DNA of 17,970 bases from a virus (lineage: Duplodnaviria; Heunggongvirae; Uroviricota; Caudoviricetes): the IMG/VR virus record IMGVR_UViG_2718218128_000004; one strand, 5' to 3'. Numbering within the stretch: position 1 is the stretch's first letter; the number at the start of each line of letters is the position of its first letter. Under the pieces are notes generated by a model, which was not told where the DNA came from, made no database searches, and saw nothing but the letters and a program-made list of their open reading frames with translations. This document shows, one piece after another, positions 1 to 17,970 of the stretch. The position numbers were made by a program, and so were the translations under genes.

Positions 1-258
1 ATGCAAACCGTTATTTTTGGTCGTTCGGGTTGCCCTTACTGTGTGCGTGCAAAAGATCTGGCTGAGAAATTGAGCAATGAACGCGATGATTTTCAGTATC
101 AGTATGTAGATATTCGTGCGGAAGGGATCACTAAAGAAGATCTACAACAAAAGGCAGGTAAACCCGTAGAAACCGTGCCGCAGATTTTTGTCGATCAGCA
201 ACATATCGGCGGCTATACCGATTTTGCTGCATGGGTGAAAGAAAATCTGGACGCCTGA
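1..258 (+). CDS. grxA: Glutaredoxin 1
   Basis: 85-aa ORF whose translation (MQTVIFGRSGCPYCVRAKDLAEKL...) I recognise as E. coli GrxA with the CPYC active-site motif; full length from ATG at position 1 to TGA at 256-258. Confidence 0.93.
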   Translation: MQTVIFGRSGCPYCVRAKDLAEKLSNERDDFQYQYVDIRAEGITKEDLQQKAGKPVETVPQIFVDQQHIGGYTDFAAWVKENLDA

Positions 259-264
259 TCGTCT

Positions 265-300
265 GACAAGCCCTCGCGTTGAGGGCTTTACTGATTTTTT
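265..300. terminator. Bidirectional rho-independent terminator between convergent grxA and ybjM
   Basis: Hairpin gccctc-gcgtt-gagggc (270-286) followed by a T-rich tract (291-300) on the plus strand; it lies in the 3' ends of both convergent genes. Confidence 0.5.
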
Positions 301-665
301 CTGTGCTGTGGTTTAAACAAACTACTGATAAATAAGAAACACAGTGCCCCCAGCGCACACCAGAACACCGCGCTTAGTAACCATGCCAGCTCTTGCCAGA
401 ATGAGCGCGTCGGTGAAAAAAACAGCCGCATAATGAGCATCGAACAGGGTGCCGCCAGCATTGCGCCAAACAGAGGTTTCAGGACTTCTCTACGCTGTGA
501 AAAGAAGCTGGCCACTGCTCCAGGAAGAATGAAAAATAGCAAGCCGATTTCAGGATGCCCGGCAGCCCGAAAAGCGCCTTTCATGTGCGTCGCCAGAAAA
601 AGGCACACCACAATGAAGAGGACAAAACAGCAGATTGCCCCCGCCCAACGTTGTTTATGTTTCAC
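288..665 (-). CDS. ybjM: Inner membrane protein YbjM
   Basis: 125-aa ORF, strongly hydrophobic with several predicted TM segments; translation matches my recollection of E. coli YbjM, and its position between grxA and ybjL matches the K-12 gene order as I remember it. Confidence 0.8.
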   Translation of the reverse strand: MKHKQRWAGAICCFVLFIVVCLFLATHMKGAFRAAGHPEIGLLFFILPGAVASFFSQRREVLKPLFGAMLAAPCSMLIMRLFFSPTRSFWQELAWLLSAVFWCALGALCFLFISSLFKPQHRKNQ

Positions 666-934
666 TCGTTCCTCCTGACACTGCGTCTATCGAACACATT
701 TTTCGCCAGTGTGGCGTTCAGTAAGATAAAGCCGCTTCGCATTCCATGCTAATATAGGCCAACGCAATTCATATAGCCGTTGATACCTAATGTGATTACA
801 CTAGTAAAATATATTGTTACTTTACTATCGTTTAGGTGCGCTGAATGAATCTGCGCCCTGAATTCTGGTAAAAAACATTATCGTAAATTACCATTTCTTT
901 CAACAGCTTACTAGTAAACAAGAAGTTAGCCTCC

Positions 935-2620
935 GTGAATATAAACGTCGCCGAATTGTTAAATGGGAATTACATTCTGTTATTATTTGTGGTCCTCGCG
1001 CTTGGGCTATGTCTCGGAAAGTTACGACTTGGTTCGATCCAACTGGGTAATTCCATTGGCGTTTTAGTCGTATCGCTGTTATTAGGCCAACAACATTTCA
1101 GCATTAACACCGATGCGCTTAATCTTGGCTTTATGCTGTTTATTTTCTGCGTCGGGGTCGAAGCCGGACCGAACTTTTTTTCCATTTTTTTTCGCGATGG
1201 GAAAAATTACCTAATGTTAGCACTGGTGATGGTTGGCAGTGCGCTGGTGATCGCCTTAGGGTTAGGTAAGCTGTTTGGCTGGGATATTGGCCTGACGGCC
1301 GGTATGTTAGCAGGCTCTATGACGTCGACACCGGTTCTGGTCGGTGCTGGCGATACACTGCGTCATTCCGGCATGGAAAGCAGGCAGCTCTCACTGGCAC
1401 TGGATAATCTGAGCCTCGGGTATGCCTTAACCTATTTAATCGGTCTGGTGAGTTTGATTGTTGGTGCGCGTTACTTGCCGAAATTGCAGCATCAGGACTT
1501 ACAGACCAGCGCCCAGCAAATCGCCCGCGAACGTGGCCTGGACACTGATGCCAACCGTAAGGTTTATTTACCGGTGATCCGCGCCTATCGCGTCGGCCCG
1601 GAGCTGGTGGCCTGGACCGACGGCAAAAATCTGCGTGAACTGGGTATTTATCGACAAACCGGCTGCTACATTGAACGTATTCGACGTAACGGGATTCTGG
1701 CAAATCCAGACGGTGATGCCGTGCTACAAATGGGCGATGAAATAGCGTTGGTAGGCTATCCCGACGCCCATGCCCGACTCGATCCCAGCTTCCGTAACGG
1801 TAAAGAAGTTTTCGATCGTGACCTTCTCGACATGCGTATCGTCACTGAAGAAGTGGTCGTTAAAAACCATAACGCTGTAGGTAAACGTCTCGCACAACTG
1901 AAGTTGACCGATCACGGTTGCTTCCTTAACCGCGTCATTCGTAGCCAGATTGAGATGCCGATAGATGACAACGTCGTGCTTAACAAAGGTGACGTTTTAC
2001 AAGTCAGCGGTGATGCCCGTCGCGTAAAAACCATCGCCGATCGCATCGGCTTTATCTCGATTCACAGCCAGGTCACTGACCTGCTGGCATTTTGCGCCTT
2101 CTTTGTTATTGGGCTGATGATCGGGATGATCACCTTCCAGTTCAGCACATTCAGTTTCGGCATGGGGAACGCTGCCGGGTTGTTATTCGCCGGAATTATG
2201 CTGGGCTTTATGCGTGCTAACCACCCGACCTTCGGTTACATTCCGCAAGGTGCATTAAGCATGGTGAAAGAGTTCGGCTTGATGGTGTTTATGGCAGGCG
2301 TTGGTCTGAGCGCCGGTAGCGGTATTAATAACGGCCTGGGCGCGATTGGCGGTCAGATGTTGATTGCCGGATTAATTGTCAGTCTTGTGCCCGTGGTTAT
2401 CTGTTTCTTGTTCGGTGCTTATGTATTGCGAATGAACCGCGCACTGTTGTTCGGCGCAATGATGGGCGCACGCACCTGCGCGCCGGCAATGGAGATCATC
2501 AGTGATACAGCTCGCAGTAACATCCCTGCGCTGGGCTATGCGGGCACCTACGCAATCGCCAACGTCCTGCTGACGCTGGCAGGGACAATCATCGTCATGG
2601 TATGGCCAGGATTAGGATAA
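935..2620 (+). CDS. ybjL: Putative transport protein YbjL (aspartate:alanine exchanger-type membrane transporter with central cytoplasmic domains)
   Basis: 561-aa ORF starting at GTG 935; translation ([33 protein letters not shown]...) recognised as E. coli YbjL; hydrophobic N- and C-terminal halves separated by a soluble central region. Confidence 0.93.
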
Positions 2621-2732
2621 AACTGAAGTTGCCCTGAAAATGAAATTTTTTTGCACAACCGCAGAACTTTTCCGCAGGGCATCAGTCTTAATTAGTGCCA
2701 CTGCTTTTCTTTGATGTCCCCATTTTGTGGAG

Positions 2733-2776
2733 CCCATCAACCCCGCCATTTCGGTTCAAGGTTGATGGGTTTTTTG
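2733..2776 (+). terminator. Rho-independent terminator downstream of ybjL
   Basis: Perfect 10-bp stem cccatcaacc (2733-2742) / ggttgatggg (2760-2769) followed by TTTTTT (2770-2775); no T-run on the opposite strand, so it acts on plus-strand transcripts. Confidence 0.6.
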
Positions 2777-2855
2777 TTGCCTGAAATTTATGCCGTTTAA
2801 AATCATGACGTTAGGAGCACTGTTTTTTAACGATGGCGACAAAATGGCGGCAGCG

Positions 2856-3074
2856 TCAAAGAGAGAGCGCCACCTGTCCTGATTTCATTGGATGCGGCTG
2901 AACCGGATTTGACTCTTTTGGCGTTGCAATCGAACGAACAAAAGTTTCATGGGTAACAAAAGTATGGCTGCAGTTAATGTTCTGGCACTGGTTGTAACGC
3001 TCTTTGGTCAATGAAGATACCTGAAAACTGCTGCGAGTATGGGCGGCACTTCCACACAGTGGGCAAATCATCAT
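2856..3074 (-). CDS. ogr: Ogr/Delta-family zinc-finger late transcription activator
   Basis: 72-aa product from ATG at 3074 (MMICPLCGSAAHTRSSF...ERYNQCQNINCSHTF...) with the C-x2-C...C-x4-C zinc-binding pattern and clear similarity to P2 Ogr as I recall it; RBS GGGGAG about 10 nt upstream. The track ORF starts 11 codons earlier, which I consider less likely. Confidence 0.85.
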   Translation of the reverse strand: MMICPLCGSAAHTRSSFQVSSLTKERYNQCQNINCSHTFVTHETFVRSIATPKESNPVQPHPMKSGQVALSL

Positions 3075-3111
3075 TTTTCGAGTTCTCCCCATTTTTGCTA
3101 AATTCACAATA

Positions 3112-3139
3112 ATGATACCGCATTATTCCATTTTGAAAA
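3112..3139 (-). promoter_or_regulatory. Putative sigma70 promoter for ogr
   Basis: On the minus strand TTTTCA (3139-3134), 16-nt spacer, TATCAT (3117-3112), about 40 nt upstream of the ogr start codon. Read by eye only. Confidence 0.3.
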
Positions 3140-3274
3140 CTTAAAAGTTCTCCATTGCGAAGAATCACTCCATTTCGAAATCATCAATCTTCACTTCAAG
3201 CTCCAAACTGGTCGTAAAACCGTTATCCGGGCTGACAGTATGCGTCAGGGTGGTAATAGTCCATTCCGCATCAT

Positions 3275-3814
3275 CTACTGTGAATGCGGGTCCGGTGCGG
3301 CAAGATGTTTTGCCATCTTATCATCCACGAACACCTTCAGCTCCAGTACCTTGTCATCCACATACTTGCGGGTTGCCAGCACGACGGCAGGGTCGATTTT
3401 CAGGGTGATATTGTCCGTGCTGCTGGTAATCAGCACCATGCGCACGGTCTGGGTGCGCCCGCTGCCTTCAGCCAGTTGCGGCTTATAGCTTTCCGGGCAG
3501 TTGCCTACGGCAATCAATGCCCCGGACTCATCAAACAGACCCACTTCACGTATCCACCAACCACCCTCATTTTCAGGGATCACCTGTTCAGCAATAATCT
3601 GGCTGCTGTTCTGCGGGTCGATATAGAGCATATTCAGCGCAGCCCGGCGTTTCTCATTTACCAGTGCCGTCTGCTTTGCGTCCGGCGTCGGCAATGCTCC
3701 GCCGCCATCGCCCACCGCCATATGGGTAATTTTTAGCGGCACACCGAGCGCGGCGGCGCTGGCAAGTTTCGCCGCGCCAATATCCGTCAGCAGGGTATAA
3801 AATTTTGTGCTCAT
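3275..3814 (-). pseudogene. H: Tail fibre protein H, N-terminal fragment (truncated)
   Basis: 179-aa ORF whose translation (MSTKFYTLLTDIGAAKLA...MAVGDGGG...ESYKPQLAEGSGRTQT...) resembles the N-terminus of the P2 H tail fibre (about 670 aa as I recall); the ORF stops at 3275 and the downstream genes G to D are absent. Confidence 0.75.
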
Positions 3815-4416
3815 GGATTCACTCTCATTGTGTCAATAACATGGACCGCCCCGCCTTCATGCGCGGTGCCGCCGGAAATAATTGTTTCGTTGATATACGG
3901 ATAGATCGTGATTTCTTCGCCAAGATAACTGGCGGCTCCCACCCAATGCGGACCGCTGGTCTGCAGATTGATGGACATGCCGATCATGTGACGGCTACAT
4001 GGTTTGGCATCGCTTATCAGTCGCTCAAGTTCCAGATAGGTATCTTCAGTGATGCCCTGGTCCTGCACACCAATGTCCAGACGAAACGTGCCCGGTGTTT
4101 CTCCGGTCTGCCACCACTCAATAATGCGGATCAGGAAGCCGAACGGCTCCACCACCCGCCGTACGGCACTGGTGGTTCCTTTGTGCTGATGAATATAAAA
4201 AGCATCCTTCACTACCTGGCGTTTGACGCTTTCTGTCCAGCCCTCGTCCCAGCGATCCACAGAGAACGCCCAGGCGAGATAAGGCAGGAAACTGACCGGA
4301 CAGGTTGCCGGATTCCACAAGTCACGCAGTGACACCTGCAGATCAGAAATCCCGCTACAGGTTTGCGCCAGTCGGCGCTCCAGTGGCGTGGAACCCGGTG
4401 GCAGCAGACTATTCAT
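3811..4416 (-). CDS. I: Baseplate assembly protein I
   Basis: 201-aa ORF (…LWNPATCPVSFLPYLAWAFSVDRWDEGW…GTFRLDIGVQ…) similar to P2 gpI; its stop overlaps the start of the H fragment (ATGA overlap at 3811-3814), as in intact P2-like tail operons. Confidence 0.85.
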   Translation of the reverse strand: MNSLLPPGSTPLERRLAQTCSGISDLQVSLRDLWNPATCPVSFLPYLAWAFSVDRWDEGWTESVKRQVVKDAFYIHQHKGTTSAVRRVVEPFGFLIRIIEWWQTGETPGTFRLDIGVQDQGITEDTYLELERLISDAKPCSRHMIGMSINLQTSGPHWVGAASYLGEEITIYPYINETIISGGTAHEGGAVHVIDTMRVNP

Positions 4417-4855
4417 CCGTTCCCCCGTTGGTCACGCTCCACTGAGTACATGATGCCGCCTGCGTTTTGTTCAGGACCACATCAGCCAGCGGTGAAGCCA
4501 GCTCCACACGTTGAACACCCTCAACATGCAGCGCGGCAAAAATAGCACTACGGCGAATATCCCGACCGAGCCGCGTCTGACTGGCGATGTACCTCTGCAG
4601 GCTGACTTTTGCCGCTGCCATTACCGGCTCTGCTTCCGGTCCCGGATAAAGAAAAATGGTAGCTTCCACACGGTACGGGATGATTTCTGCGCTGCGAACC
4701 GTCAGACGGTCAGCCACCGGGCGGACGTTCTCACTGTTCAGGGCTTTCTCCACCACATCCAGCAAGTCTTTTTCTGCTGTTCCGTCGCCTTCACGACTCA
4801 GGACAGTCAGTACCACCTCTGCAGGTGCCGGACTGGTTGCACTGGCATCCGCCAC
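4409..4855 (-). pseudogene. J: Baseplate assembly protein J, C-terminal fragment (N-terminal half missing)
   Basis: 148-aa ORF matching the C-terminal half of P2 gpJ (…VRPVADRLTV…LYPGPE…LGRDIRRSAIFAALHVEGVQRVELASPLADVVL…); P2 gpJ is about 300 aa as I recall, and the genes normally upstream (W, V, S, R ... O, P) are absent. Confidence 0.75.
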
Positions 4856-4964
4856 CCGACCGTCGGCGCTTCGGGCATGAAATTCATAAGCGGCAGTTGG
4901 CCCCGCAACAGAAAGCCCTTCAACCCAGCCGTATCAGTTCACGAAAGGCAGCATTTTTCATCTG

Positions 4965-5504
4965 ATGGAACCGGACATCAACCAGGAGATCTACGGCTTG
5001 CCCGGCTATCTTTCTGCCATTCCATCCGCCCTGCTCAACGAATCCGCCACGCTGTTCCGCCGTAAGTATTACATCAACGGCAGCCATGCAGGCTTCATCA
5101 TGTACATGACCGACGCCGCGCAGAATCAGGAGGATGTGAACAACCTCCGCAACGCGATGAAAAGCGCCAAAGGTCCAGGCAACTTCCGCAACCTGTTTAT
5201 GTACTCGCCTAACGGCAAAAAGGACGGGCTTCAGATCATTCCTCTGTCAGAAGTCGCGGCGAAGGATGAGTTTCTGAATATCAAAAATGTCAGTCGCGAT
5301 GACATGATGGCAGCACACCGCGTACCGCCGCAAATGATGGGGATTATGCCGAATAATGTTGGGGGTTTTGGGGATGTGGAGAAGGCGAGTCGAGTTTTTG
5401 TGCGAAATGAATTGAGGCCACTACAAAAGAGCCTATTAGAGCTGAACAACTGGTTAAAGGAGGATGTAATACATTTTGAGGATTATAACTTAGATATTCA
5501 ATAA
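4965..5504 (+). pseudogene. Q: Portal protein Q, C-terminal fragment
   Basis: 179-aa ORF similar to the C-terminal half of P2 portal gpQ (…KGPGNFRNLFMY…LQIIPLSEVAAKDEFLNIKNVSRDDMMAAHRVPPQMMGIMPNNVGGFGDVEKA…); opposite strand to the tail genes, as expected for the P2 Q-P operon; N-terminal half and gene P are missing. Confidence 0.75.
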
Positions 5505-5508
5505 TCTT

Positions 5509-5532
5509 AAAAACCTGCATATGCAGGTTTTT
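5509..5532. terminator. Bidirectional rho-independent terminator
   Basis: Perfect palindrome aaacctgcat/atgcaggttt (5511-5530) flanked by an A-run upstream and T-run downstream; sits between the convergent Q fragment (+) and the three-gene cassette (-). Confidence 0.5.
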
Positions 5533-5567
5533 ACATTATATAGTTATAAAACTAACAAAAATCATAT

Positions 5568-6233
5568 TCAAAGCTCTGAGTCTACAGGCTCATGATAAAG
5601 GTTTACAGGGTAGTGTATAACCTCATAATTAAGTTGACTAACAGTGTGAGTATGTTGACTGTAAAAAACCAATGGGTTTCTCTTACAAGGAGTTATCGAG
5701 ATAGACTTACAAGCATGAATTCTTGGAGCCGATTTATCTAAATGAGCCTTCCACTTAGTCATCATTTCATTACATTTTTTATTACGCGTATATATAATTA
5801 ACCCACCACTTGCACTGTCTACAGTACCAGTGCTATATCGCTCAGTGAGTTGTGCATACCCTTTAAATAAATAACTATATGAACCAGTGTGTTTTTTGGC
5901 CTCGCCATGCCAAGTAAATCTATTCAACTTTATTGTTATATCACAATGACCTCGTTGATTATTTTCATGATATGCTTCAATTCCCATATCTTTATTTTTT
6001 ATATTTGCCAGTAAAATTAAAGTAAGCTGATCTTCTGTTAAATCAAAATTCAATTTATTTGAATTTTCCTCAATTGCCTGTACAGCAGAATCAAGCTCAA
6101 TTCTTACAAACTGTTTGAAGTTCTCATACGACTGGAGAGCAAACCTAACGCGAGTAATAGAAGCATTGATACGCTGAAGAAAAATATCATTATCAATTTC
6201 AGCTAAACTCATTGGTGCAGACATTTTTAACAT
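5568..6233 (-). CDS. Hypothetical protein, gene 3 of AT-rich three-gene cassette (221 aa); possible PD-(D/E)xK-like nuclease motif
   Basis: ORF with ATG at 6233-6231 overlapping the stop codon of the upstream gene by 1 nt (TGATG); strongly AT-rich; no family recognised by eye; segment HCDITIKLNRFTWHGEAKK contains a D...ExK arrangement. Confidence 0.6.
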   Translation of the reverse strand: MLKMSAPMSLAEIDNDIFLQRINASITRVRFALQSYENFKQFVRIELDSAVQAIEENSNKLNFDLTEDQLTLILLANIKNKDMGIEAYHENNQRGHCDITIKLNRFTWHGEAKKHTGSYSYLFKGYAQLTERYSTGTVDSASGGLIIYTRNKKCNEMMTKWKAHLDKSAPRIHACKSISITPCKRNPLVFYSQHTHTVSQLNYEVIHYPVNLYHEPVDSEL

Positions 6234-6667
6234 CAGACAATATCCTTTAATTTAGATTCATCTAATGTAAAAAAAGGAAAGACGAAGGACTTATAGTCAT
6301 ACATAATCTCCCCTGTAAATGGGTTTACTAAAGATTGATTAATTTCAGCCTCTATAACATCTTCTAACTCAAGCTCAATAGGATCATGAAAATCATCAAT
6401 AAACCAATAATTGAGTTTTAAAAACTCAACCTTTGGACTACAAAGAATTTGTATAGCTGGGTACACAACCTGCTCATATGCTTCAGGTTGTATACATCCT
6501 TTATAACCATTAACGATACTAAATAAATCTTTATAACTCAGAGCTATATTAGGCGATTTCTTTGCTCTCACACCAATTTCATCATACAAATAGCAAGCTA
6601 GCGCCCCTATATCAGGGCGCTCTGCACATATTTCTTTGATGATCTGGGGCATATCACCATCCTTCAT
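6233..6667 (-). CDS. Hypothetical acidic protein, gene 2 of AT-rich three-gene cassette (144 aa from ATG 6667)
   Basis: ORF in the track begins at TTG 6679; I prefer ATG 6667, which has GGAG 6 nt upstream. Acidic C-terminal stretch (DDFHDPIELELEDVIEAEINQ). No family recognised. Confidence 0.6.
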   Translation of the reverse strand: MKDGDMPQIIKEICAERPDIGALACYLYDEIGVRAKKSPNIALSYKDLFSIVNGYKGCIQPEAYEQVVYPAIQILCSPKVEFLKLNYWFIDDFHDPIELELEDVIEAEINQSLVNPFTGEIMYDYKSFVFPFFTLDESKLKDIV

Positions 6668-6679
6668 TGCTGACTCCAA

Positions 6680-7786
6680 TTATAATATCAGCTTTGTGAG
6701 GGTTTCGAAATCATCTTTGGATATACATTTGCTTAATATAGCATAATTGACAGGAGAGCACCCACTACCACCTAAATGTCTGCGTAATGTTCCTGGAATG
6801 ATAAGCTCTACACTATCCGCCAATTGCAATTTTGGATTATTCCTATCTACTCTAATTCCAATACGATATAAACCAATATTACCTACAGCTTTAATGCCCT
6901 CTTTATTAAACAGATCATCACGCAAGTCTTTCTTAGCCACATTTTTCTTTTCCTTATGAGTGGTTCCCTCATAAGTTAAAAATGACAAATCGAACACCTT
7001 ATAACTTAAACTTGAATATGGCATTACATTTTGCTTGAAAATTGGCTCAATTAATGGATAAAAATCCTTTTCCGATGAATTAAATTGATAACCTGCGCAA
7101 TTATATAACTCACGAATAAAATTCGTTTTCGCAAAAACGATATTATCACCAACAACATTACCATTAGTATCAATTAATACATGGATTTTATTTGAAGCTG
7201 AATCTAATATACACACATCAAAACACTGACGTTTTTCTTTTCTCTTCGCAATGATTTCATCAAACTGTTTGTATGCTGCTAACTTTGACGGAGGGACTTT
7301 CTCTCTTACAACCAGCTCCCTGATAGATGAAAATACCAAAATAGACTGAGTATTTTGCTTAGAGTAATTAACAAGCTCAAGTTGATTTTTAATAGCATGC
7401 TGTAATTGAACATCATCAACAATCGTTTCGACTAATGATGTTGGTTGCTTCATCATATTCCATTGGCGAGCATATCTATCATCAAGTAATTTAATTACTT
7501 GACTATCTACAGACAAACTAAATATTGCTTTTTCACCATAAACAACCTGCCCAAAGACTAAATCATTTACACTTGCAATGATTTTGTCAAATTTTTGCCT
7601 ATCTTTCTTTTTAAAATCAATGAGGCTTTCTAGTATTTTGTCGTTTGTTGCTTCACGCCCTCTACCTGTAGGTAGCCCTAAAGAAGCAATAATTGGTCTG
7701 GCGATATGCCACGTAAAACGTTCAGTTAAGGCTAAGATCGACTTTAACTCAAAGTCAGAAAGCACCACTGGGACACCACTTGTCAT
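6680..7786 (-). CDS. Hypothetical protein, gene 1 of AT-rich three-gene cassette (368 aa from ATG 7786)
   Basis: Track ORF starts at GTG 7795; ATG 7786 has AGGTG 6 nt upstream. Stop codon directly abuts the gene 2 start region. No Walker A, HUH or other motif recognised by eye. Confidence 0.6.
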   Translation of the reverse strand: MTSGVPVVLSDFELKSILALTERFTWHIARPIIASLGLPTGRGREATNDKILESLIDFKKKDRQKFDKIIASVNDLVFGQVVYGEKAIFSLSVDSQVIKLLDDRYARQWNMMKQPTSLVETIVDDVQLQHAIKNQLELVNYSKQNTQSILVFSSIRELVVREKVPPSKLAAYKQFDEIIAKRKEKRQCFDVCILDSASNKIHVLIDTNGNVVGDNIVFAKTNFIRELYNCAGYQFNSSEKDFYPLIEPIFKQNVMPYSSLSYKVFDLSFLTYEGTTHKEKKNVAKKDLRDDLFNKEGIKAVGNIGLYRIGIRVDRNNPKLQLADSVELIIPGTLRRHLGGSGCSPVNYAILSKCISKDDFETLTKLIL

Positions 7787-7849
7787 AACATGCACCTAGT
7801 CAACCCAAAAGCAATTGAAAATCGCTCTTGTCTTAATTTTTTCCATCAA

Positions 7850-7877
7850 TATCTAACAAATTACCTTAATGTTGAAA
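7850..7877 (-). promoter_or_regulatory. Putative promoter of the three-gene cassette
   Basis: Minus strand: TTGCAA (7877-7872), 16-nt spacer, GGTAAT (7855-7850), about 60 nt upstream of ATG 7786. Weak -10; by-eye prediction in AT-rich DNA. Confidence 0.25.
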
Positions 7878-7936
7878 AAGTTTGCAAGCCATTTGCGTCT
7901 AAAAAGTGACTTGACTCAATGTGTTACAAAGCTTAG

Positions 7937-7955
7937 CGAGCGCGCGCTCGTATCC
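7937..7955 (-). other. cos-like sequence (possible cohesive-end site of the P2/186 family)
   Basis: Minus strand reads GGCGTGGCGGGGATACGAG; the first 13 nt match the 186/P2 cohesive-end sequence as I remember it (GGCGTGGCGGGGAAAGCAT for 186). Orientation agrees with the prophage orientation. Recalled from memory, not verified. Confidence 0.3.
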
Positions 7956-8007
7956 CCGCCACGCCTGCCCGCTTTATGGAGCGATTTTCATGCACCTGCA
8001 TGACATA

Positions 8008-8034
8008 AGCAAAAGCCCGCCAGTTCTGGCGGGC
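8008..8034 (-). terminator. Rho-independent terminator for the leftward SOS-regulated transcript
   Basis: Stem gcccgcc (8015-8021) / ggcgggc (8028-8034) with loop agttct; on the minus strand the hairpin is followed by a T-run (plus-strand A-run at 8011-8014); about 70 nt downstream of the 88-aa ORF. Confidence 0.45.
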
Positions 8035-8101
8035 CTCAGCGAAAACGATCCTCAAACGATCATGCGATCTCATGCAGCATAGACATGCACCCAGCCGGTT
8101 G

Positions 8102-8368
8102 TCAGAAAAGCGGCATTTGTGGGGTGTATCCAACGGGTAAAGACCGTCTGAGCTGCTCGCCCTCATAATCAATGATGAAGACCATCGCCTCACTACCTGA
8201 TACAGGATGATCGGAGCCAAACAAAAACACATCATCCATGGTTCTTCCCATCCAGTACTTGCCGCCATACTCTACACGACGCTGAAACAAAACCCATCCA
8301 CCAAGTTCGTCACGTTCAAGCGCCTGCCCCTCATAAACGGTCTGGAATTTGCTGTTGGATTTACCCAT
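8102..8368 (-). CDS. Hypothetical small protein (88 aa), second gene of LexA-controlled operon
   Basis: ATG 8368 preceded by GAGG 9 nt upstream; in-frame TAG upstream confirms it is a separate cistron from the preceding small gene. Function not recognised; position corresponds to the tum/SOS operon of phage 186. Confidence 0.6.
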   Translation of the reverse strand: MGKSNSKFQTVYEGQALERDELGGWVLFQRRVEYGGKYWMGRTMDDVFLFGSDHPVSGSEAMVFIIDYEGEQLRRSLPVGYTPQMPLF

Positions 8369-8446
8369 GGCTAACGCCTCGTTGTACTCGTTGTTTAACC
8401 TTGCTGACGTAAGAAGCTAGTTCTCACGCCAGCAACGTTCCTGCTG

Positions 8447-8635
8447 TTAACTGGGAAGATCCATTGAGCGGTTGTATTCATGAGCACGAATCTTTGCCAT
8501 CAGCTCATCCGTTAACTCAGAAACCCACTGGATAGCCAGTCGCTTCTCTTCATCATCACACTCACTAGCCGCCACAAGCTTGACAAAAAAATCAATGCGC
8601 TGGAGCTTCAACGACTCCAAAAAATAGTCTTGCAT
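8447..8635 (-). CDS. Hypothetical small protein (62 aa), first gene of LexA-controlled operon
   Basis: I place the start at ATG 8635 (strong AGGAGG 4 nt upstream) because the track ORF start at 8758 lies upstream of the promoter; product MQDYFLESLKLQRIDFF... Confidence 0.5.
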   Translation of the reverse strand: MQDYFLESLKLQRIDFFVKLVAASECDDEEKRLAIQWVSELTDELMAKIRAHEYNRSMDLPS

Positions 8636-8665
8636 CTTCCCTCCTATCACCAAACACACAGAAAG

Positions 8666-16917: not shown

Positions 16918-17970
16918 ATGGCAGTACGAAAACTCACCACCGGAAAATGGCTTTGCGAATGTTACCCCGCCGGACGTAGTGGGCGTCGTGTGCGTAAACA
17001 ATTCGCCACCAAAGGCGAAGCTCTGGCTTTTGAGCGTCACACGATGGACGAAACCGAAGCAAAGCCCTGGCTGGGTGAATCAGTGGATCGTCGAACACTG
17101 AAAGACGTGGTTGAGCTATGGTTCAAACTACATGGTAAATCTCTGACAGCTGGGCAGCATGTCTATGACAAATTGCTGTTGATGGTTGACGCTCTGGGCA
17201 ATCCCCTTGCAACCGATCTCACATCTAAAATGTTTGCCCACTATCGAGATAAACGCCTGACAGGTGAGATCTATTTCAGCGAGAAATGGAAAAAAGGAGC
17301 AAGCCCGGTCACTATTAACCTGGAGCAAAGCTATCTAAGTAGTGTTTTTAGCGAACTATCCCGCCTGGGCGAATGGTCGCATCCGAACCCACTGGAGAAC
17401 ATGCGAAAATTCACTATCGCAGAAAAAGAGATGGCATGGCTTACCCATGAGCAGATTGTTGAATTGCTGGCTGATTGCAAACGTCAGGACCCAATTCTGG
17501 CACTGGTAGTTAAGATATGCTTAAGCACAGGCGCACGCTGGCGTGAAGCCGTAAATCTTACCCGCTCACAGGTGACTAAATACCGAATTACCTTTGTCAG
17601 AACGAAGGGGAAGAAAAACAGAAGCATCCCTATCAGTAAAGAGCTTTACGAAGAGATCATGGCGCTTGATGGGTTCAATTTCTTTACAGACTGCTATTTT
17701 CAATTTTTATCCGTGATGGAAAAAACGTCTATCGTGCTCCCTCGCGGTCAACTGACACACGTTCTGCGCCATACGTTTGCGGCGCACTTCATGATGTCGG
17801 GTGGAAATATCCTGGCCTTACAAAAAATTCTCGGGCATCACGATATAAAAATGACTATGCGTTACGCACATCTGGCACCGGATCATCTGGAAACGGCGCT
17901 CCGTTTCAATCCTCTGGCAACGCTGCCAAGTGGCGACAAAGTGGCGGCAGCGGTTGGCATTACCCCGTAA
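16918..17970 (+). CDS. int: Tyrosine site-specific integrase (P2/186 family)
   Basis: 350-aa ORF with tyrosine recombinase signatures: conserved HVLRHTFA box, LGH motif and catalytic Tyr in MTMRYAHL; N-terminus (MAVRKLTTGKW...GRRVRKQFATKGEALAFE) typical of P2-family integrases; stop codon is at the window end. Confidence 0.9.
   Translation: MAVRKLTTGKWLCECYPAGRSGRRVRKQFATKGEALAFERHTMDETEAKPWLGESVDRRTLKDVVELWFKLHGKSLTAGQHVYDKLLLMVDALGNPLATDLTSKMFAHYRDKRLTGEIYFSEKWKKGASPVTINLEQSYLSSVFSELSRLGEWSHPNPLENMRKFTIAEKEMAWLTHEQIVELLADCKRQDPILALVVKICLSTGARWREAVNLTRSQVTKYRITFVRTKGKKNRSIPISKELYEEIMALDGFNFFTDCYFQFLSVMEKTSIVLPRGQLTHVLRHTFAAHFMMSGGNILALQKILGHHDIKMTMRYAHLAPDHLETALRFNPLATLPSGDKVAAAVGITP

Follow-up and report, generated by a model that had tools for sequence, protein, structure and literature searches.

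A P2-like prophage remnant at rybB with two late-gene deletions, an orphan ogr and a recurrent breakpoint in gene D

The DNA analysed here (the window) is a stretch of 17,970 nucleotides (nt) from the virus record IMGVR_UViG_2718218128_000004 of IMG/VR, and the subject of this report is the late-gene region of the P2/186-like (Peduoviridae) prophage that it carries beside rybB, a small RNA (sRNA) gene of Escherichia coli. In this region, fragments of the late genes D, H, J and Q (D', H', J' and Q') and a full-length gene I lie next to an intact ogr, the gene for the late activator. The window was compared by BLAST with the intact P2-like Escherichia phage Cartapus (NC_070909), which was used as the reference for gene content and coordinates.

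Gene fragments and deletion junctions beside rybB

Window positions 1-2783 are E. coli chromosome and carry grxA, ybjM, ybjL and rybB (99.4% identity to K-12 over 1-2791). Homology to K-12 stops at about 2783-2791, just past the rybB terminator, and the right end of the prophage (attR) was therefore placed from about 2784; the attL end lies beyond the window. From 2784 onward the window is a P2/186-like prophage inserted at the 3' end of rybB, beside ybjL. As in P2-like prophages, integration is at an sRNA gene with ogr at the attR end (rybB, with ogr at 2856-3074), and the P2-type gene order is kept (D'/ogr, H-I-J, Q, cos, and gpA through the early genes) at 73-96% identity to Cartapus. The cos region (window 7938-8090) matches both Cartapus termini at 91-93% identity, the gpA open reading frame (ORF) encodes a rolling-circle initiator of 794 amino acids (aa; PF05840, Phage_GPA), the early region is 93.5% identical to that of Cartapus, and an int ORF with weak similarity to the Cartapus integrase (~72%) starts at 16918 and runs off the window end. 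P2-like phages are known from the literature to insert at this site, and E. coli W, B and Crooks each carry a defective prophage there, designated 'Rybb*' (Archer et al. 2011, PMC3032704). The features from rybB to the end of the late-gene relics are listed below.

2700-2778, plus strand: complete rybB sRNA gene (Rfam RF00110, 105 bits, model positions 1-79 of 79).
2856-3074 including the stop codon, minus strand: ogr, encoding an intact 72-aa zinc-finger late activator of the Ogr/Delta type (Cys4, Cys7, Cys30, Cys35).
3085-3139, minus strand: putative ogr expression signals in the D-ogr intergenic region, from a consensus scan and a reading of the sequence.
3165-3277, minus strand: D', 2 nt plus the last 36 codons and stop of late gene D, with no start codon.
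3275-3814, minus strand: H', the N-terminal 179 codons of tail-fibre gene H (Pfam PF12571, Phage_tail_fib, 1-150 of 150).
3276-3279: junction A, with the break between 3277 and 3278; D ...CATCATCTA / CTGTGAATGCGG... H, TA microhomology.
3811-4416, minus strand: I, a baseplate/tail gene of full length (201 aa) without a promoter (Pfam PF09684, Tail_P2_I).
4409-4923, minus strand: J', baseplate gene J from about codon 132 to codon 302, its last 170 codons (Baseplate_J, 154-254 of 255).
4921-4924: junction B, with the break between 4923 and 4924; J ...GCCCTTCAA / CCCAGCCGTATC... Q, CAA microhomology.
4924-5504, plus strand: Q', portal gene Q from about codon 151 to its end, ~193 codons of its C-terminal part (Pfam PF04860, Phage_portal, 142-277 of 321).
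5509-5532: palindrome A5-CCTGCATATGCAGG-T5 between Q' and the accessory cassette, read from the sequence.

The Ogr protein matches PF04606 (Ogr_Delta) with E = 6.7e-22 and 77.6 bits against a cut-off of 26.3, and it fits the family definition of about 72 aa with a CxxC...CxxxxC zinc finger. It is identical to WP_000972391.1, annotated in strains 13C1079T, C21, TW11681 and A12, and shares 45 of its 72 residues with Cartapus Ogr and 37 with OgrK of K-12. The assembly collection lists this exact protein in 71,578 blocks, and ogr adjoins ybjL in all 10 neighbourhoods returned for it as well as in the complete genomes examined. Upstream of the gene, a putative promoter consists of a -35 element TTTTCA (3139-3134), a 16-nt spacer and a -10 element TATCAT (3117-3112), and a putative ribosome-binding site GGAG (3088-3085) lies 10 nt before the ATG.

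BLAST split window 2944-5453 into three abutting Cartapus blocks.

Window 2944-3280 = Cartapus 22698-22384: ogr and the 3' end of D (73% identity).
Window 3276-4923 = Cartapus 12843-11196: the N-terminus of H, I and the C-terminus of J (95.8% identity).
Window 4921-5453 = Cartapus 1452-920: the C-terminus of portal gene Q (91% identity).

Junction A joins the last 36 codons of D to codon 179 of H. The D' fragment was defined by alignment to the intact D genes of strain C21 and of Cartapus, and the identical allele was found within intact D genes of 8 complete genomes. The parental H sequence reads ...GGTGCATA/CTGTG and the parental D sequence ...CATCTA/TCGG, with TA alone common to both. H' has 179 codons versus 473 in Cartapus (176 of the 179 residues identical), and its stop codon TAG (3275-3277) is a product of the junction. 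H' and ogr are separated by 113 nt from the end of D (3165-3277), followed by the D-ogr intergenic region of 90 nt. The DNA lost corresponds to Cartapus 12844-22383 (9,540 base pairs, bp). With it went late promoter P_F, the C-terminal part of H and most of D, as well as the intervening G, invertible tail-fibre region, FI, FII, E, T and U.

In Cartapus, 75-nt inverted repeats (13341-13415 and 14823-14897) flank the invertible tail-fibre segment beside a Gin-like invertase gene, and this module lies entirely within the DNA lost at junction A. The H-side break is not a common homology boundary in phages or E. coli genomes. The exact 179-aa H' sequence is also encoded on a public contig (L005) that has a complete late-gene run from O to I. 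Six public Logan contigs (L005-L010), mutually different and 96.5-99.6% identical to the window, end exactly on the H-side breakpoint nucleotide, window 3276 (...CCGCATTCACAGTA). These ends may reflect assembly-graph branching in samples that hold both the remnant and an intact relative, and they are partly an ascertainment effect of searching by the exact 179-aa product.

At junction B, J' and Q' are joined head to head at their 5' ends with no spacer. The interval lost is Cartapus 1453-11195 (9,743 bp), and with it went three late promoters (P_P, P_O and P_V), the N-terminal parts of J and Q, and the genes W, V, S, R, X, L, M, N, O and P along with the lysis genes. J' retains 170 open codons of 302 (168 of 170 residues identical to the Cartapus J C-terminus) and has no start of its own, the GTG at 4855 chosen by the ORF caller being internal. 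Q' retains 193 open codons of 344 (180 of 193 identical to the C-terminus of the Cartapus portal) and likewise lacks its start, the ATG at 4965 being internal. The Pfam matches of both fragments start mid-model. Gene I between the junctions is 199 of 201 residues identical to Cartapus gp18. The palindrome at 5509-5532 is probably a bidirectional intrinsic terminator that would insulate the late-gene relics from cassette transcription; the terminator scan passed over it, its loop being shorter than 3 nt.

A sequence-only reading of the window had proposed that non-adjacent structural genes were fused here by deletion, and alignment to Cartapus confirmed that the junctions are real, placed the breaks at 3277/3278 and 4923/4924 and gave TA (junction A) and CAA (junction B) as the short repeats at the joins (2-3 nt of microhomology). 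The stop of H after 179 codons (compared with 473 in Cartapus H) and the absence of W to P, which fall within the interval lost at junction B, were both as proposed. H was said to be followed directly by ogr, which is incorrect given the D tail and intergenic region between them, and the proposed loss of G to D holds from G through most of D, the last 36 codons and stop of D being retained. With this D tail overlooked, the recurrence of the D-side breakpoint also escaped that reading. The truncated J and Q do adjoin, with no gap; the roughly 110 bp thought to separate their C-terminal halves is J and Q coding DNA without an in-frame start. The bare ORF calls, and nothing more, would agree with the opposite view that these ORFs are full-length members of shorter protein families, or that the junctions are assembly artefacts. 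This view is extremely improbable: nucleotide identity of 91-96% with the intact H, I, J and Q genes breaks off sharply at each junction, the J' and Q' domain matches begin inside their models, the H' stop is built by the junction, and numerous finished genomes have the D-side break at this very position. The alignment outcome that would have overturned the sequence-only reading did not arise, and H', J' and Q' are truncated H, J and Q. The Logan assembly of run SRR28568604 also carries the arrangement with 100% identity over 13.8 kilobases (kb), its independence from the source of the window not being established.

About 19.3 kb in total is missing relative to Cartapus. The same genes are absent when the comparison is made with the intact rybB prophage of strain A12 (NZ_CP028762), which has the identical D' allele and is 99.6% identical to window 1-3277 (ybjL, rybB, ogr and the D tail). 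H', J' and Q' are free of frameshifts, and all pieces are open and 93-99% identical to Cartapus. Since their reading frames have stayed open and differ little from those of functional phages, the deletions were taken to be recent and the fragments to be inert relics rather than new genes. None of the surviving late-gene pieces (D', H', I, J', Q') has a promoter of its own, and the complete head, tail, lysis and packaging set of a functional prophage, with P_P, P_O, P_V and P_F, is lacking. The junction pair of the window was found in 0 of 5,426 complete genomes and was seen in one or two public assemblies only.

The recurrent breakpoint in gene D

In at least five rybB remnants whose deletions differ, the D-side break falls on exactly the nucleotide seen at junction A; these remnants are identical up to ...CCATTCCGCATCATCTA and then continue into a different gene (H, T, lysA/N, L or P). 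The site and the junction types are listed below.

D hot-spot site: ...CCATTCCGCATCATCTA/TCGG..., 113 nt before the end of gene D.
D-site sequence stretch within gene D: CATCATCTATCGG.
This window: partner H codon 179, TA shared at the join.
13C1079T: partner tape-measure gene T, CTATCGG shared at the join.
YJ1 and EcMAD1: partner terminase gene P, A shared at the join.
TW11681: partner 17 nt copied from lysA and then capsid gene N, TA and then CCA shared.
IMG/VR and metagenome contigs L017, L019 and L031: partner head-completion gene L, A shared at the join.

In order to gauge how often the site is used, complete-genome records were matched to an 81-nt probe centred on it. Of 1,310 records matched, 1,190 read through the site; among the remaining 120, all six sampled rows end at probe position 39-42, which is the D site. 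With a longer probe, other endpoints in D (692, 769, 778, 867 and 1123) each appeared once or twice in the sampled rows. If ends were distributed uniformly, the chance that 5 of about 10 types fall within 4 nt of the 1.1-kb D gene is roughly 1e-7 by our own estimate. The hot-spot junctions occur on at least three D' haplotypes, each of which is also found in intact D genes. Moreover, the T, H, lysA and L types each keep junction-adjacent DNA that is absent from the others and therefore cannot be derived from one another. The D-side end is thus not random: deletions that arose independently in related prophages have used this hot spot repeatedly, to the exact nucleotide. These deletions always spare ogr and, in every examined remnant with this breakpoint, also the early/replication module, cos and the accessory slots.

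With the recurrent end included, the region was interpreted, with high confidence, as the decayed late-gene half of a P2/186-like rybB prophage that has undergone two recent deletions, retains an orphan ogr and has a non-random D-side end. In this reading, illegitimate recombination at 2-3 nt of microhomology struck twice, taking about 9.5 kb in one deletion and about 9.7 kb in the other. Lost with this DNA were some 30 genes for morphogenesis and lysis and each of the four late promoters that depend on Ogr. What stayed behind were five late-gene pieces cut off from transcription (D', H', I, J' and Q') and the intact ogr, which has a predicted sigma-70-type promoter of its own.

Several points weigh against this interpretation. 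The predicted ogr promoter is a 9/12 consensus match only, and expression of ogr is a prediction from this pattern; the window covers the element only as far as a point within int. YJ1 and EcMAD1 share identical flanking proteins, and the common P-type junction is probably one clonal event, so the 120 records overstate the number of events; what counts is the number of junction types, which is five, and four of these are strictly impossible to derive from one another. Furthermore, nothing that was tested (att, gene A, invertase, hairpin, clustered regularly interspaced short palindromic repeats (CRISPR), insertion sequence (IS), mosaic) explains the hot spot. Secondary-site recombination by Int was rejected because the att core at the rybB terminator is unlike the D site, and a gpA pseudo-origin because the 16-mer has no second match in Cartapus at up to 3 mismatches. 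Neither the D nor the H site resembles the Cartapus crossover repeats, as a quasi-site for the tail-fibre invertase would. A hairpin or cruciform was not significant on the plus strand (z = -0.8), and on the minus strand (z = -2.5) the fold is diffuse with no discrete stem at the break. CRISPR self-targeting gave no spacer-sized match in the 5,426 complete E. coli genomes at E <= 10, and for IS-mediated adjacent deletion there was no IS at any junction and no IS-interrupted copy in the sampled rows.

Further candidates were rejected in the same way. Shared ancestry fails because the T, H, lysA and L types retain private junction DNA and sit on different D' alleles. A mosaic or module boundary was discarded since intact prophages continue through the D site, the boundary between ogr types being the D stop codon. 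A type IIS cut (GCATC N5, SfaNI-like) fits the position by eye and was rejected because a site of 5 bp would occur dozens of times per prophage. The 8- to 9-mers that the D site shares with gene A are at chance level only. Scanning genome contigs for the D site returned chance 18-mer matches in unrelated phyla only, and the metagenome scan added just one more copy of the L type.

The pattern to be explained combines an end fixed to the nucleotide with partners that vary, and do so on just one side; the joins have 1-3 nt of terminal homology, and one of them has a templated insert. This insert, the 17-nt lysA copy of TW11681 (L013 14480-14496), has one mismatch and lies between the D' stub and the N fragment; it points to serial template switching and is a hint of a replicative mechanism. 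A fixed 3' end at ...CATCATCTA, left by a nick or by replication arrest, would prime on a distant template through 1-3 nt of homology, and such a fixed end is the most likely, though unproven, cause of the hot spot. As a tentative proposal, held at less than even confidence, the D site may be a site-specific start of large one-directional deletions (a template switch of 2-19 kb) in P2-like prophages of the rybB type. If so, intact prophages would repeatedly be turned into elements that lack late genes and keep ogr, cos, int and cargo; domestication of the prophage, or a defective or satellite-like genome derived from P2, would then have a built-in path.

By itself the gene content carries little weight, defective P2-like prophages at rybB and orphan ogr genes being textbook prophage decay; the recurrent D breakpoint is the sole feature that would surprise a specialist. 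Prophage decay is usually modelled as random deletion plus selection, and in these prophages a single nucleotide of D is the starting point of four or five independent deletions at least, which extend over varying lengths of the virion genes. Were the cause a defined nick, arrest site or enzyme, it would provide a concrete mechanism by which temperate phages are disarmed while their cargo stays, and a sequence to watch when P2-like prophages are engineered or induced. No such hot spot was found described in the literature searched, and we know of no such deletion hot spot.

Ogr targets, accessory genes and the state of the element

Late promoters were sought as the TGT-N12-ACA dyad, with Cartapus as the positive control. 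In Cartapus the dyads coincide with the late promoters expected there, two of them between P and O (3658 and 3716), one ahead of V (9817) and one ahead of FI (15568). All four fall within the DNA that the two deletions removed, and Ogr is therefore left without its targets in cis. No suitably placed dyad (centred near -55) occurs anywhere in the window, so any target of Ogr must be in trans. Ogr would then act on a P2-like phage, incoming or co-resident, or on a P4-like satellite, in the manner of the K-12 remnant ogrK-D'.

The sequence-only reading had anticipated the loss of nearly all late-operon targets, and the loss of all four late promoters agrees with it. Its statement that ogr keeps a plausible promoter and ribosome-binding site also stands as a prediction from sequence (a sigma-70-like 9/12 match and GGAG). 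The further suggestion that Ogr had been redirected to the accessory cassettes found no support and is very unlikely, even though ogr is intact with plausible predicted expression signals and one perfect TGT-N12-ACA lies in the 8758-8874 intergenic region. The window holds 8 dyads versus 4.6 expected by chance, a number reached in 19 of 200 shuffles, and even with one mismatch allowed none occurs in the 150 nt upstream of the three-gene cassette operon (7796-7945). The sole intergenic dyad (8837-8854) overlaps the -10/start of a sigma-70-like promoter, 20 nt before the ATG at 8874, and is not centred near -55, unlike the four Cartapus late promoters.

The accessory genes themselves are as follows.

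5568-7795, minus strand: three-gene operon in the slot between Q and cos (ORFs 6680-7795, 6233-6679 and 5568-6233, of 371, 148 and 221 aa).
8874-9248 and 9245-9703, plus strand: two AT-rich ORFs between cos and gpA (124 and 152 aa) with no family match, preceded by a sigma-70-like promoter.
14897-15841, plus strand: ORF for a CI-type repressor (314 aa from a TTG start) with two Phage_CI_repr helix-turn-helix stretches and a CI C-terminal domain.
15853-16830, plus strand: 325-aa ORF in the accessory slot between CI and int, with a weak sub-threshold match to DUF2207_C only.

None of the three cassette proteins (371, 148 and 221 aa) had a significant match in Pfam, PADLOC or NCBIfam. In other rybB remnants this slot is occupied by an AIPR protein, by P-loop NTPases or by an HsdR-like protein, and for this reason the operon may be an undescribed defence cassette. 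The only match of the 152-aa ORF is sub-threshold, to the RADAR accessory protein RdrD (18 bits versus a cut-off of 230). CI at the same position has 189 aa in C21 and 292 aa in YJ1, and that of the window may be a repressor variant with a tandem helix-turn-helix.

Differently deleted remnants are present at rybB in strains 13C1079T, C21, YJ1, TW11681 and others, and their variety is what random decay would give if the ogr end and, in strains with the common D breakpoint, the early region were spared. Late regions of rybB prophages elsewhere are deleted variously, with gpA joined to the end of T and cos lost (L043) or with Q-P'-H'-T' patchworks (L047). Among other rybB prophages (L043, L047, L052 and L003), insertions of the IS5 and IS66 families lie near the portal gene, and ogr is kept throughout.

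Instead of neutral decay, the deletions could have shaped a domesticated or satellite-like element of about 15-16 kb that is kept for its cargo or mobilised by a P2-like helper. Such an element would keep int, CI, cox, gpA/ori, cos, ogr and the cassettes, and its Ogr would switch on the late genes of the helper as P4 delta does. What a hitchhiker needs does survive here (cos at 91-93% identity, the 794-aa gpA, the early region at 93.5% and a CI repressor), the same set is kept and the late genes are lost in the D-breakpoint remnants 13C1079T, YJ1 and TW11681 and in C21, the Q-cos slots hold differing cargo (AIPR protein, P-loop NTPases, HsdR-like protein), and the exact Ogr is found in 71,578 blocks of the assembly collection. 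However, the double deletion, found in 0 of 5,426 complete genomes and in one or two assemblies, gives no sign of spread, and losses vary among remnants, some of them without cos (L043), as random decay predicts. In addition, no gene for capsid size or helper manipulation was recognised (no sid or psu homologue among the Pfam hits), and the useless H', I, J' and Q' are still present. On balance this alternative was considered unlikely, though less so than a redirected Ogr.

Comparison with known systems

The K-12 element PR-X (ogrK and the D' pseudogene yegZ at cyaR) is alike in having an orphan ogr and a 3' fragment of D beside an attachment-site sRNA gene, and an orphan ogr with a D' stub is thus already known from K-12. 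PR-X differs in being 629 bp only, all else having been lost, in a D' pseudogene of 219 nt versus 113 nt here, and in an Ogr that is only 37/72 identical. Unlike PR-X, the window keeps the early region, cos, accessory cassettes and five late-gene relics. Slettan and colleagues reportedly found in 1992 that the ogr copies of K-12 and B are expressed and complement ogr-defective P2.

Fixed-end nested deletions provide a parallel for the D site. In lambda, Int-promoted 'b' deletions adjacent to att are of this kind, and Michel and Ehrlich are said to have described, in 1986, illegitimate recombination at the origin nick sites of M13 and pC194. These systems share one nucleotide-fixed end, variable partners and little or no homology; the D site, unlike them, has no recognisable att, origin or recombinase-site sequence.

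P4 has a genome of 11.6 kb with a satellite-specific alpha primase-helicase, capsid redirection by Sid and Psu, epsilon and a small capsid size. Like a P4-type satellite, the window has int, a helper-compatible cos and a transactivator of the ogr/delta type, all simply inherited from the parent phage. It differs in replication by a P2-type gpA, in the lack of a Sid, Psu or alpha match among the window proteins (those without a Pfam, PADLOC or NCBIfam family match being accessory-slot ORFs only) and in element size, about 15-16 kb versus the smaller P4.

The intact Cartapus and the rybB prophage of A12 are collinear with the window (Cartapus at 91-96% identity in H-I-J, Q and the early genes); relative to them, the window lacks 19.3 kb (Cartapus coordinates) and has different genes in the accessory slots. 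The closest counterparts are the 'Rybb*' prophages of E. coli W, B and Crooks, which are at the same site (rybB beside ybjL), belong to the same phage family and are defective (PMC3032704). They differ from the window in breakpoints and cargo: the B-lineage prophage keeps about 400 nt of D beside a recombinase gene, and that of E. coli B carries retron Ec86 (PMC3032704). The window holds one more decayed P2-like prophage of the Rybb* type with an orphan ogr, and its pair of junctions is private to it.

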